Origin: Chrysomallon squamiferum
Taxonomy: Eukaryota; Animalia; Mollusca
Direction of reading: 5' to 3'
DNA: 64,000 nucleotides
Assembly (NCBI GenBank): GCA_012295275.1
Contig: CM022679.1
Coordinates: 14,632,001-14,696,000 of the forward strand
Part shown: in pieces, positions 52,641-58,600 of the stretch
How the letters are laid out: each line of letters opens with the position of its first letter
Numbering within the stretch: position 1 is the first letter of the stretch
Made by a program: the position numbers and the translations under genes
Notes under the pieces: generated by a model
Database searches by the model: none
The model's input: only the letters and a program-made list of their open reading frames with translations
What the model was told of the DNA's origin: nothing

Positions 52641-55600
52641 TTACTCTGTGGTAACACTCTTGGCCAGATTCCGTGGACAATCAACCTAGAAAAGAAACCA
52701 GCTCTCAGCACCGGTACACTGGGGTATTTATACACAGCAGTTAGCAAAAGCAAACAAAGAGAACAAATGGGAAGATAACAGTGCAATTAATTTTAGTCAT
52801 TTGATACATTTTTATTATGCAGATAAAAAAAATGTATGTATATATATTGAGCTTGTTATGTTATTGTTAAACTTTATTACTAGAAAAGTTTGCTTGTCTT
52901 TATTTAATAAACATTTGAAAGTAAAATTTAAAACATAAAAGACATCAATGAATTTAAAAAATGTTAATAAATTGTATCAATAATCAATATGTATCATTTT
53001 CTTGTTAAAATGTTCACTTATAATTTCACATAAAATTACAAATTTTTTTTTTTTATTTTTTTTTTTTTTAAGAATTAATATTTTTAAAATATATATAAAT
53101 TTAAATGAAATGATTTTATTTTGTATTTAAAAATAACATGAAATAAATAAATTCACACATTACATATTAAAAAGTAAGTTATTTTGAATGTTTTACTCAA
53201 AAATATAAAATAAAAATAAAAATATAAAACCATATAAAAAGGGTGCAGATTACCCTTAGAAGCCATTAAACCACACCTGACATACATATTAATAAAGCAC
53301 ATATAACACTGGTATTAATTTCCCCTGCAGTCCTTTCCTTAAACAATTCCATAATAAAAGCATGCATAAAATAACACTAGAAAGATTTCAGAAAATAAAG
53401 GATAACATCAAACTTAACTACATGTAAAAACAATTTTTTTTTTTTGGTTAATTTTAATTTAAAAAAAGGACCATAATAATAAAAATAAATAAGTAAATAA
53501 ACAATGTATAAGAGAATTAGTATATAAATATAAATAAATAAAACAAATATCTTTTGGAATTTAGTCAATTCCAAGTAAAATTTCCATTAAATTTAAAAAA
53601 AAAAAAAAAAACCCATTAATATAAAATAAAATTGGCAAAGATTAAGTTAATAAACATACAAAATCTAAATAAAAATGCTTAGCTATAACTATGTGGTTTG
53701 AATTACATTTTACTAACAAATTAATATCCTAATATTTATAATTTAAAAAAGTCAATTGTGCCACAAGTGTATAAATGAATTTGTGTATTAAAACAAGTTA
53801 CAACATTTATCTAAAATTATCTAAATTGTGAATAAATATCTATTACAGACAACAGACAAAAAAAAAAAAAAAAAAAAAAAAAAAAAGAAAAAAAAGAATA
53901 AATAACCAAATGTTTTTTTTACTATTATTTAAAAATATATATATATATAGTGCAATTATAAACTGGAAAATAGAATATTTTAAATATTATTAATCAAGTT
54001 ATTGCTTTAAAGTTTAATTTCTGAAATCTTTTAATTAATCTCATCCCTGAAAGCAGAATGTGAATAACCACCATCAACTGTTTTATGTCTGCACCTCATT
54101 CTAAAGCAGCAGTAAATAATATTTTTTTATTTTATTCTAAATTGTTAGTATTATTATAATTATTATTTATTAAAATATTTTTTTTTCTTACAGTTAATAC
54201 AATGAAGCCATTCTATATTCATCTGCCTGGAATCACTAACTAAAGCATTTTTTTTTATATATATACATATATAATTTTTTGACCAGAAGAATGTAAGAAA
54301 CAGTGTTTTAAAAGACTAGCTACTTATATTGGTTTATTTCTTCCAACAAACCTTTGTGAAGTTGTTAATAATGCAGAGTATACTGTTACATTGATTAATG
54401 AACTACAAACAGACTGCCAGGAAAACAGGCAATCATATCAAAATGATTAGAAAATAAAAGTTGAAGATTCCAATATGGCATTTTTGATTTCAGACTTGTA
54501 TTCCAAAAACAAAATCTTCAGAAGAAACTCACAATTAGGTTATCTGTGTTCATATCTTGTTATTTTATTTTATATGAATATTATAATTATGCAACTTCCC
54601 CAAGACAGGAATACATTTAGAAGAAAATTTGAAAACTAGCTGTGAGTCAAAGGACTGATGCAGAAAGAACTGTGACCTGCCAAAATGTATTTGTAACTGG
54701 TATGAAAACACTGAACTTTTTTAAAAATTAAATAAAATAATTCAAGTAAGGTGTAATTTTACTTTTTTAATAACTTGTTTATTTTTTATTTTATTATATT
54801 ATATTTTTTTTAAATTTATTTATTTATTTATTTGGTTTGTTTATGGCTTAAATATTAGCAATGTCCTATTAACTAAAAGAAAAATGATGAAAAAAGAATT
54901 CCTATATAATAATAAAATGTAAATGAATTGAAATAAACATCAATATGATAATAAAAATAAAAGAATTCTTATGTAGAATAATATTCAGCAAAAAAAAAAA
55001 AAAATATGAGGTATTATCATAATGAAAATAATAATAACCAGTATAACATAAATGAATCAAAAAGGACATAAAAATGAATAATAATAATAATAATAACAAT
55101 AATAATAACAATAATAATAACAACAACAGTAACAACAATAATAACTAACTTCAGTATAACAAAGACAAAAAAATAAAAAACAGTTTTTATCACACAGACA
55201 TGCTAATGAGATCTGGTAGTTGTAGAAGTATAAACCTCTGTAGATTGGTGAGTTTCTGCAGAAGATATCTAGCAGTTAAAGGCTTACATCGAATCCCCGT
55301 AAAACTGCGATATGGAAAGAAAGCATCTGCATGGGAATCACTGTGAGCACCCCCTGCAGACAGTCCACGTTGTGAGGTAAATCCACATGTTTATAAGCAA
55401 AAGTTTGAGTGGCAGTGTCGTTCTGGTTACAAATGATAATCGGGCGGCCCTATAAATAACATGGGTACATTGAACAACGTGGAATTAAAAATGCTACAGC
55501 CTTACAAGAAAACCTAGGACGTACGTGTTACTTGTTTATTCTAAAAAGCAAAAACGAGGAGAAAATAGACAATATTGTGTTAGCAAGCAGTGCTGGTATG

Positions 55601-58600
55601 AGGTTATTTTTGGTTCAGAATTTTTTTTCTTTTTTTTTCTTACCTTTAATTTTAATTTAAAAAAAAAAAAATTCGGAACCACAAATTTATTACAATACTC
55701 AACTAAAATTCATGGTGAATAGTTTTTTTTTTTAATATATTAAAAGTTTTGAAATAATTAAACGGTTTTATTTTTCAAATTTTTAATTTTTATCGAGAAG
55801 CAAAATTTTAAGATTTGATCCGAATATCATAACATGAATTTTTTTTTTAAAACAACTTATAAATCACCATGATTTCAACTGAGTTTTATAACAGATTAGG
55901 AAAGCCAACTGCCCATGCAAACCAAGGGATACATGCATCCAGTGCATTAAATGAAAAAAGAAAATTAATATGTCAAGCTGCACACACACACAAGATATAT
56001 ATATATATCTGTACATATATGTATATAAATTCATATACACATATGTTAATGCTTGTTCATGCTCACGTCATAATTTCTTGACTCAGCAATGTGAAGTGAC
56101 AGCAGTTGCATGGGTATTACTGTAAGTATGCCCTGAAGGCAGTCTATATTGTGGGGGACTGCAATATGTTTTTTTGTTTGGCTCTGAGTCTCATTATCGC
56201 CAGTGTTGCATATCAATATAGGCTCTCCCTACAAGACAAGACAGAAGGCATGCAATATAGAAACAAAATTAAAATTAAAAATTAAAAATAAAACACTGAA
56301 AATGAAATTAGTGTGAAAAAACCCAGAAGATATTGTCAGAGCATGAAAATGTTAAATTTGGCAAAAATGTTTAATTATTTCTTCTTCTTCTTTTAAATTT
56401 GTTTTAATTCTTTTTAACAGTTAAATTTATAAATGACAAGGTTAATTTCACGGTTACATAATTATATTACTGTTATTTACATAATTACATTGTGTCTTCC
56501 TTCATTTTATTTAAAATATTTCTAAAAATTATTCAAGATAATTTGTTAAATCAGTCATATTCAATTTCTATTTTTGTTCCATTAAATATTTTTCATATTT
56601 TATTTTCTGTAACAAATATATTTTTCATATTTTATTTTCTGTAACAAATATATCAGTGATTATTTTCTTTTTTATTTCAAAATCAATAACAGAATTACAG
56701 ATTAATTATTATTATTTATAAATATACTTATTGTTCTATGATCTTTTGATATAAAAACCAAAATCATATTACAAACAGCCTAAATATAGCATACACTTAT
56801 TTAATATGTCTTTTACTCAAACAATAAAGCTTTTCAAGCTCTGACTGAGATATCTTCTGATGTAAAAACAAAACAAGAATAAGAACTGTTTAACAGTGTA
56901 AACCTCAAAATGTTCAACAGTAACAATGCAGATTAAATTTATAATTATAAATAAATAAATGTTTTGAGGGGGCATTATTTATTTATTTATTTTATTTACT
57001 TCTTTATTTTCTTCCTGTAATTTGGACTGTTATAGAATTCTGTCTTATTATAAAATTTTATAATGACAACATTAAAATATATTAAAATATATTAAAATAA
57101 CTTTCAAGTATATTACATCTCTATAGGACTGTGATAAAGAATAGTAGCAAATATGTTAATATTCCAATTTTTTTTTTTTTTTTTAAATAACTTTTTGGAC
57201 ATAATGAGTTTTTGGATGTTTTGGGACACTGTTTGTTCAAAAATATTACATTTTTCTAAAAGCATGTTAAATGCTGGATTATATCAATACACTTTATTTT
57301 TATATTCAACACTGTGAGGTTTAGAAAAATAAAAATAAAAATACTAAAAAAGAAACAATTCTAACAAAACAAAAACTGAAATAATAAAAATAATTCTAAC
57401 CAACAAGAACAACAAAAAATGTCACTGTGAAAAGAATGCTGAAACAGGTTTTTACATATATTTATATATGCATTATATTTTTACAGGAAAACACATAACA
57501 AATAATTTTCTATACTAACTACTATTATGACAACATTTACTATAATAAATAAAATAAATAAAAAAAAAAAAAAAAAAAAAAAAAAAATTAAATTAAATTA
57601 ATGTAAATTAAATTAAAAAAAAAAAAAAAAAAAAAATAAAATAAAATAAATATAAAATATAAAAATAAAATAAATGCATTTAAGATAAATTATTTGAAGG
57701 CAATATTTATAAAAATAATTCAAAATAGAACCTATAGAAATAAAAAAAAAATCACATATAGCTATAAATAAAAATTAAATAACAAAATGCAATAAATAAA
57801 TAAATAAATAAATCTCATACTTTCAAGAAGAATATATGGAAAGACTGATTTTCAAAATATTTAAAAAATTTCTCACTTTTGACATTTAAAGAATATTACA
57901 TTTTTATTTTTATTATCTCTATTAATCACCAATTTCTTATTTAATCCATTACTTTTGGACAATTCAATAACTTTAAAAAATAAATTAAAAATAATAAATT
58001 CATGAACTGTTTTAGATAACTAAATTACATGAAGGGACATTCTGGAATTTGTAATTATTCTGTTTGAACATCAAATATGAATTGTATCATTTCTTATATT
58101 ACAATATGCTTAACTACCCAAGATTATGAGATCTTCAGTTAATGTTTGAGATTACTGAATACTCTGATATACTATGCTTACAATATTTAGTATTTTTTAT
58201 TTAAATTCTATCAAAATTGAATTGTAAATCAATGTCAACTGCTAATGAAATAAAAAACACAGTGCATGAAAAGTTATTTTTTAATCACAGAAAATGACAT
58301 GCAAGAAACAAAATGTGCATGTGCATACAATTTGAAAAAAATAAAATTAAAAATAGTATTTGCAGAATACATAAAAATTTGTACATGTAGAAAGAAAAAA
58401 ATAACAATTCCTTTCTTAATGATAAAAAAATATTTAAAGTCTGAAATTTTTTTTTTCTGAAATAAAATAAATATTTAAGAATTTAAATTATATATTTTTA
58501 AAATAAAGTTAGCCAAAAAAAAAAAAAAATTATATACATCAAAATATTACAATAGTAATTTAAAAACTGATATTAAAATAAAAAAAAAATAATTTAAGTG

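Follow-up and report, generated by a model that had tools for sequence, protein, structure and literature searches.

Ancient duplications of two 3' exons in a mollusc GFAT gene and a likely choice between two catalytic tails

Introduction

Can a single gene supply several C-terminal forms of the same enzyme, and would these forms differ in what they do? The question is raised by a stretch of 64,000 nucleotides from the mollusc Chrysomallon squamiferum (assembly GCA_012295275.1, contig CM022679.1, positions 14,632,001 to 14,696,000; hereafter the window, from whose first letter all coordinates are counted), which holds part of a gene for GFAT. This enzyme sets the flux into uridine diphosphate N-acetylglucosamine (UDP-GlcNAc), the precursor of chitin, glycans and O-GlcNAc, and its C-loop, which links both active sites, is nearly invariant among the canonical tails seen in this study. 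An original prediction, made from the sequence alone, described two homologous exons here (A, divergent, and B, canonical) followed by a canonical and a divergent tail exon (T1 and T2). Our overall reading, which we consider probable, is that two old duplications of 3' exons underlie the locus, that A and B are alternatives, and that T1 is likely to be a cassette whose skipping gives T2, a tail predicted to transfer ammonia less well.

Results

The exon pair and its splicing

The minus strand of the window carries the 3' half of the gene, coding for the isomerase half only, in the predicted order A, B, T1 (52685-52641, to its stop) and T2 (51205-51155); its assignment to GFAT is based on the glutaminase and two SIS domains found by Pfam in Gigantopelta orthologues and on a fold match to human GFAT-1. 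Both exons of the pair measure 162 nt, are of phase 0-0, follow an AG and precede a GT (GTGAGC after A, GTAAGC after B), and are open in frame 0, with coordinates and peptides as originally described. They share 61% protein identity (tblastn against the window, E about 6e-19 and 8e-19). Queried in the same way, either exon matched only the other copy, no comparable second copy was found for any other coding exon queried, and T1 matched T2 weakly (E 0.18). The contrast first noticed between conserved amino acids and diverged synonymous sites amounts to saturation of the latter (33.3 differences over 35.8 synonymous sites; 33.7 over 126.2 non-synonymous sites), so the pair is neither a recent duplicate nor an assembly echo. 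Both exons align to residues 614-667 of human GFAT1, the last two strands and the C-terminal helix of SIS2 (six was subtracted from the construct numbering to give human numbering, as confirmed at Asp667). Exon A shares 93% identity with its Gigantopelta counterpart, and Lys676 aligns in both tails.

RNA from four runs was available as assembled contigs, aligned to window positions 55230-56290, with T1 and T2 lying outside that stretch; such contigs lose rare forms, and their depth is a poor gauge of expression level. In runs X1 and X2 a single contig spans exon A with the upstream exon and T1 as its loose ends (depths in Table 1), which means that exon B is skipped, and in X3 a contig joins exon B to T1 (depth 4). 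Exon A is thus spliced, and onto the canonical tail T1. No A-B joint is listed in any of the four runs, though contigs of this kind drop rare forms; the remaining pieces extend into introns at depth 2-4 and are possibly unspliced RNA or DNA. The A-T1 and B-T1 junctions, the lack of an A-B joint and the single copy per protein in relatives all support mutually exclusive use of the pair. That only B is ever spliced is contradicted by the upstream-A-T1 contigs in X1 and X2, and that A and B are always included together by the A-T1 junctions skipping B. Because A and B join the tail exons directly, the long reads suggested for phasing them with the tails are unneeded.

What enforces the exclusion? 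Frameshift and decay on double inclusion are ruled out, both exons being multiples of 3, and so is a steric block (donor to branch point below 50 nt), the intron measuring 617 nt here and between 592 and 1415 nt at three further loci; the exon B acceptor has an AG some 45 nt ahead of it (no branch-point predictor was used). For competing docker/selector pairing, the window offers 158 inverted repeats, of which the 25 shown are A/T-rich and of low complexity and gave no convincing pairing, close genomes for covariation being lacking. Of the 12 TGCATG motifs on the window's minus strand, three stand around exon A, but neither exon has one nearby in locus L002, and those of L032 and L037 are mostly close to B, which leaves Rbfox-type control a weak lead. 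By elimination only, exclusion is likely to be achieved by regulated splicing through RNA-binding proteins.

The pair in relatives

Among 276 collected proteins, many of them redundant, 268 carry the exon motif, and 266 of these hold a single copy. The exon and tail combinations are B-T1 in 132 (mostly arthropod-type single exons), A-T1 in 83, A-T2 in 26, B-T2 in 7 and others in 18. In each of the genera Patella, Pomacea, Crassostrea, Mytilus and Dreissena, the predicted models include all four combinations, in line with the proposal of up to four C-terminal forms from two independent duplications. An upstream-B junction bridging A is present in Gigantopelta model P0050, and also in P0099 and P0273 (short contigs). 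The further idea that A goes only with the divergent tail and B only with the canonical one did not hold: A is joined to T1 in two of the four runs, and the predicted models of these five genera carry B with T2.

A tree built from 59 exon peptides separates the 19 A rows (92/98) from the 17 B rows, which group with nine arthropods; the A rows represent one change in 100% of 200 bootstrap trees. The A-then-B order is repeated in the genomic loci L002, L032 and L037. Together these observations point to a single duplication before molluscs and annelids parted, with exon A as the derived copy, and the suggested comparison with protostome GFAT genes finds the pair to be old and common to both groups. 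Columns 658 (Leu/Met in A, Phe/Tyr in B) and 662 (Glu/Gln/Thr/Asp in A, Val/Leu in B) separate A from B completely, and column 665 almost completely. The arrangement was not found in arthropods among the best 120 of 184 exon-B matches and the named exon-A and tail matches, a weak negative.

Some relatives vary further. In L037 the exon that encodes Glu561 and His577 occurs twice (5531 and 6342), perhaps as a third duplicated pair, and its first copy has Thr for Pro after the His; the window holds one copy of that exon. L031 (2155-3250) combines an A-side exon with a hybrid tail (T1-like end, His at 673) and is possibly a separate lineage. The A-type exons of P0048 (Physella) and P0108 (Elysia) contain a long insertion, and Physella and Biomphalaria apparently have more than one GFAT form. 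Mollusc isoforms with an identical C-terminus vary from 677 to 720 residues, implying more alternative exons upstream.

The tail exons

The original prediction took T1 and T2 as alternative terminal exons. Two tails there are, but T1 is probably not terminal, because a GTAAGC donor lies 22 nt after its stop. From a scan of metagenome contigs, 80 of 127 matching loci were kept. In four annelid-like mRNA contigs (L004, L008, L012 and L014) T2 lies 25-45 nt past the T1 stop. It has no AG ahead of it in these contigs, although all 20 genomic T2 starts have one, so an intron has been removed between T1 and T2 there; for the window gene the T1-T2 join is taken from these relatives' mRNAs. A donor follows the T1 stop by 13 nt in L002, 42 nt in L032 and 3 or 27 nt in L037, and a donor-like motif within 55 nt of the stop occurs in 4/4 loci with the A/B pair, in 0/22 T1-only loci and in 13/89 background windows. 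These comparisons make it likely that T1 is a stop-bearing cassette spliced onto T2, with T2 as the true last exon.

Nonsense-mediated decay is escaped if the stop lies within about 50 nt of the last junction. Inclusion of T1 would place the stop 22 nt ahead of the last junction and so let the mRNA escape decay, with T2 as 3' untranslated region (UTR); when T1 is skipped, T2 would be read in frame and its variant tail would replace the catalytic C-loop. We regard this pair of outcomes as highly probable.

Around the end of T2, a short hairpin overlaps the stop and a longer one lies behind it (window 51160-51040, minus strand; -23.8 kcal/mol, computed without a shuffle control).

Predicted effects on the enzyme

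In the structural literature, Lys676 is catalytic, Thr679 takes part in glutamine hydrolysis, and each sugar site is formed by both subunits, His577 coming from the partner; a GFAT2 model has tail Leu and Ala in contact with the tryptophan that seals the ammonia channel (PMC7948480). T2 keeps Lys676 and has Leu at Ala675 and Tyr or His at Val678, the latter in 24/24 distinct T2 tails, all gathered with a pattern fixing D, P, R, L, L and K. Position 679 is Thr in 10, Ser in 10, Ala in 3 and Cys in 1. T2 is without terminal residues that are nearly invariant in T1 tails, and AlphaFold gave a predicted local distance difference test score below 50 for both tails and hence no discrimination. In the alignment, position 678 corresponds to residue 605 of the E. 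coli enzyme. Substitution by leucine at that residue and at residue 602 reportedly lowers ammonia transfer by about half (Floquet, 2007).

By enlarging two channel-lining positions while keeping the catalytic lysine, T2 would weaken ammonia transfer between the active sites, and a slower or leakier T2 enzyme would damp hexosamine flux, perhaps within mixed dimers. T2 may well be a real enzyme variant with weakened ammonia channelling. That it damps hexosamine flux as a slower or leakier GFAT is a tentative view, falling a little short of an even chance, and is nonetheless the most likely of the three fates that we considered, ahead of a fully active variant and of a dead one.

Columns 658, 662 and 665 sit in the helix leading into the tail, beside Asp667, which pairs with Arg33 of the glutaminase domain according to one structural report (PMC7000685). 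Direct contact of exon A or B with UDP-GlcNAc is ruled out, since the listed binding residues (Gln310, Arg343, Gly355, Thr447, Thr458, Gly461 and His463) all lie outside 614-667. Exon A alters the helix before the tail and is likely to tune tail or domain docking, not UDP-GlcNAc binding.

Paralogues with a single tail

Among 61 single-exon genomic loci, 19 have T2 without T1, 23 have T1 without T2 and 19 end without a tail. Between exon and tail of the 19 T2-only loci the best T1-like match scores 19 of 72; L031, a T1 locus with a deviant tail, was set aside, and in the other 22 T1-only loci the best T2-like score is 21 of 65 over 540-7132 nt downstream. For nine of the 19 T2-only loci, the assembly also contains a T1-only locus. 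In a tree of 107 columns, from which 9 of 20 chosen loci were dropped for a missing exon, six T2-only and five T1-type loci form two clades (99/95 and 93/97) within the Ridgeia/Lamellibrachia branch (95/96); L059, on a contig without a tail, is labelled T1-only by likeness. The mRNA L014, carrying both tails, falls in the T2 clade. The annelid-like T1-only and T2-only loci have lost exon B.

The T2-only genes retain the isomerase motifs around Glu561 and His577. Their tails have a ratio of non-synonymous to synonymous change (dN/dS) of 0.039 (13 distinct sequences; related, non-independent pairs) and their exon A one of 0.092, and the T1-only paralogue tail shows no amino-acid change (pN 0.000). 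By the ratio for the tails, T2 is under purifying selection.

A decayed T2 in the 3' UTR of T1-only genes was looked for and rejected as not significant, 11/200 shuffles scoring as high. Some T1-only loci (e.g. L042, L057 and L060) share a short TGGTGG-rich element about 35-50 nt past the stop, which is not a significant T2 remnant.

Discussion

Of the alternatives to a weakened T2 enzyme, the one that survives best is that, with the same splicing, T2 GFAT is fully active and differs only in regulation, stability, partners or location. We hold this to be a serious possibility, though not a favoured one. T2-only genes keep the Glu561/His577 motifs, Lys676 and mostly Thr/Ser679, their exon A is under purifying selection, and the fixation of a whole gene on T2 suggests a working product; the retention of a T1-only paralogue alongside (9/19 loci, with an unchanged tail) fits T2 not replacing T1. 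We consider it unlikely that T2 is an off switch, a dead or unstable protein diverting transcripts or poisoning dimers. The missing terminal residues would suit such a role, as would a sugar site built by both subunits, through which a dead subunit could act in trans, but a gene carrying only T2, its catalytic motifs conserved and its dN/dS near 0.04-0.09, is hard to see as waste. Similarly doubtful is that, in this species, T1 and T2 each end a transcript as a genuine alternative last exon, polyadenylated separately and with no T1-T2 splice. No T1-T2 join was seen here, although the RNA stretch aligned ended before the tails; AATAAA at 51828 and several ATTAAA stand between T1 and T2, and the mRNA contig L016 has T1 with no T2 behind. 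Such hexamers are, however, to be expected in a region of about 77% A+T, and both the donors after T1, here and in 4/4 A/B loci, and the spliced T1-T2 form in four mRNA contigs speak for a cassette. Strict coupling (A-T2, B-T1), or inclusion of A and B together, is very improbable: the four Gigantopelta models read lack B-T2 and two 'hypothetical protein' models (P0003 from Ridgeia and P0108 from Elysia) contain both exons one after the other, yet 83 A-T1 and 7 B-T2 proteins exist, A-T1 junctions skip B in two runs with no A-B joint, and a tandem would duplicate core strands and a helix of SIS2. A bias short of strict coupling may exist.

Several points weigh against alternative A/B exons and a cassette T1 whose skipping yields a weaker enzyme. 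The upstream-B junction was not seen in the four runs, where B has a depth of 2-4; no junction into T2 was seen in the RNA contigs, the aligned stretch having ended short of both tails; and all four runs come from one study. The four combinations come from predicted models, not complementary DNAs, and the exon tree has 54 columns and an unsettled bootstrap. The invariance of T2 at D, P, R, L, L and K, including Leu-Leu-Lys, was imposed by the search pattern, and position 679 is Ala in this species' T2 and Thr/Ser in 20 of 24 others, so activity may differ between tails. The sequence pairs behind the dN/dS values are related and thus not independent.

More speculatively, T1 skipping might date from before the mollusc/annelid split, with T2 as a natural ammonia-channel variant that leaves this essential enzyme partly uncoupled or that, within dimers, acts as a brake on the supply of chitin and glycans, and with T2 having become fixed as a separate gene in one lineage of worms. 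In subfunctionalisation, splice forms are divided between gene duplicates. The annelid-like loci resemble this in having split into T1-only and T2-only paralogue clades; they differ in that L014, within the T2 clade, still carries both tails, so that the split is complete in part of the lineage, and in the additional loss of exon B.

How does the arrangement compare with what is known? As far as the accessible text of the relevant sources goes, human GFAT1/GFAT2 and E. coli GlmS share the fold and catalytic residues, B and T1 matching the canonical form, and no alternative C-loop was found there (PMC7000685, PMC8041777, PMC7948480). Nor did one appear among the 16 solved sequences matched (one alignment shown). 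Vertebrates, as these sources describe them, diversify GFAT by two paralogues, unlike the tail swap proposed here. A muscle insert in the glutaminase domain also varies vertebrate GFAT.

The A/B pair resembles mutually exclusive exons, as described in a study of human genes (Hatje et al., 2017; PMC5740500), in equal length, frame, homology and one copy per protein, and joining reads were not seen among contigs that drop rare forms; GFPT is absent from the main text of that study, and its simple exclusion mechanisms are not applicable here. The tails recall coding 3' UTRs, in which skipping of a penultimate exon opens the 3' UTR to translation and creates a new C-terminus (Preussner et al., 2020; PMC7392665). 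There the new tail arises from a frameshift and is proline-rich and destabilising, whereas here T1 itself supplies a stop codon, and T2, homologous to the catalytic loop and in frame, is under purifying selection. Both are thus known as kinds, and the isoforms are already present in public predicted gene models. An oyster cadmium study lists gfpt1 as differentially spliced, the event being unnamed in the text available (PMC11988029). A description of this arrangement of A/B and tails was not found in the literature searched, subscription journals and supplements being outside its scope.

The exon pair alone is ordinary; what draws interest is the tail swap, together with the paralogue in which one tail has become fixed. 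The second loop, which molluscs and annelids have kept and a paralogue has fixed, supplies naturally occurring variants with which the gating of ammonia by the loop can be studied. It may also point to control of hexosamine flux at the level of splicing in shell-, radula- and bristle-making animals, a putative link to tissues.

Other features of the window

The features of the gene are collected in Table 1.

Table 1. GFAT features in the window.
Feature	Position	Strand	Evidence or remark
Constitutive 39-nt exon upstream of the pair	58724..58762	-	Translation; sequence found as the loose end attached to exon A in X1, X2 and X3
Exon A, derived copy, human 614-667; better covered copy in 2/4 runs	56067..56228	-	Contig depth 24.5 (X1), 11.3 (X2)
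A-B intron, 617 nt, GT-AG, two TGCATG at +130 and +148	55450..56066	-	Motif positions unconserved in 3 other A/B loci
Exon B, copy of ancestral type, clustering with the arthropods' single exon	55288..55449	-	Exon tree; B-T1 junction in X3
T1, canonical C-loop exon of 14 residues with its stop at 52643-52641 and a GTAAGC donor 22 nt further on; likely cassette	52619..52685	-	
T2, 16-residue variant of the C-loop with a stop, preceded by an AG acceptor; likely start of true last exon	51155..51205	-	Orthologous tail in Gigantopelta models P0049 and P0051

Elsewhere in the window, an apparently intronless open frame of 385 codons (45481-44327, minus strand) matches Cys-loop ligand-gated ion channel domains (PF02931, E 8e-35; PF02932, E 1e-12), and 10715-10242 on the same strand is an exon of a methylenetetrahydrofolate dehydrogenase/cyclohydrolase gene (PF00763). 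On the plus strand, 19172-19603 is a probable exon of another gene; it has no Pfam match, and it may resemble RUN-domain proteins.

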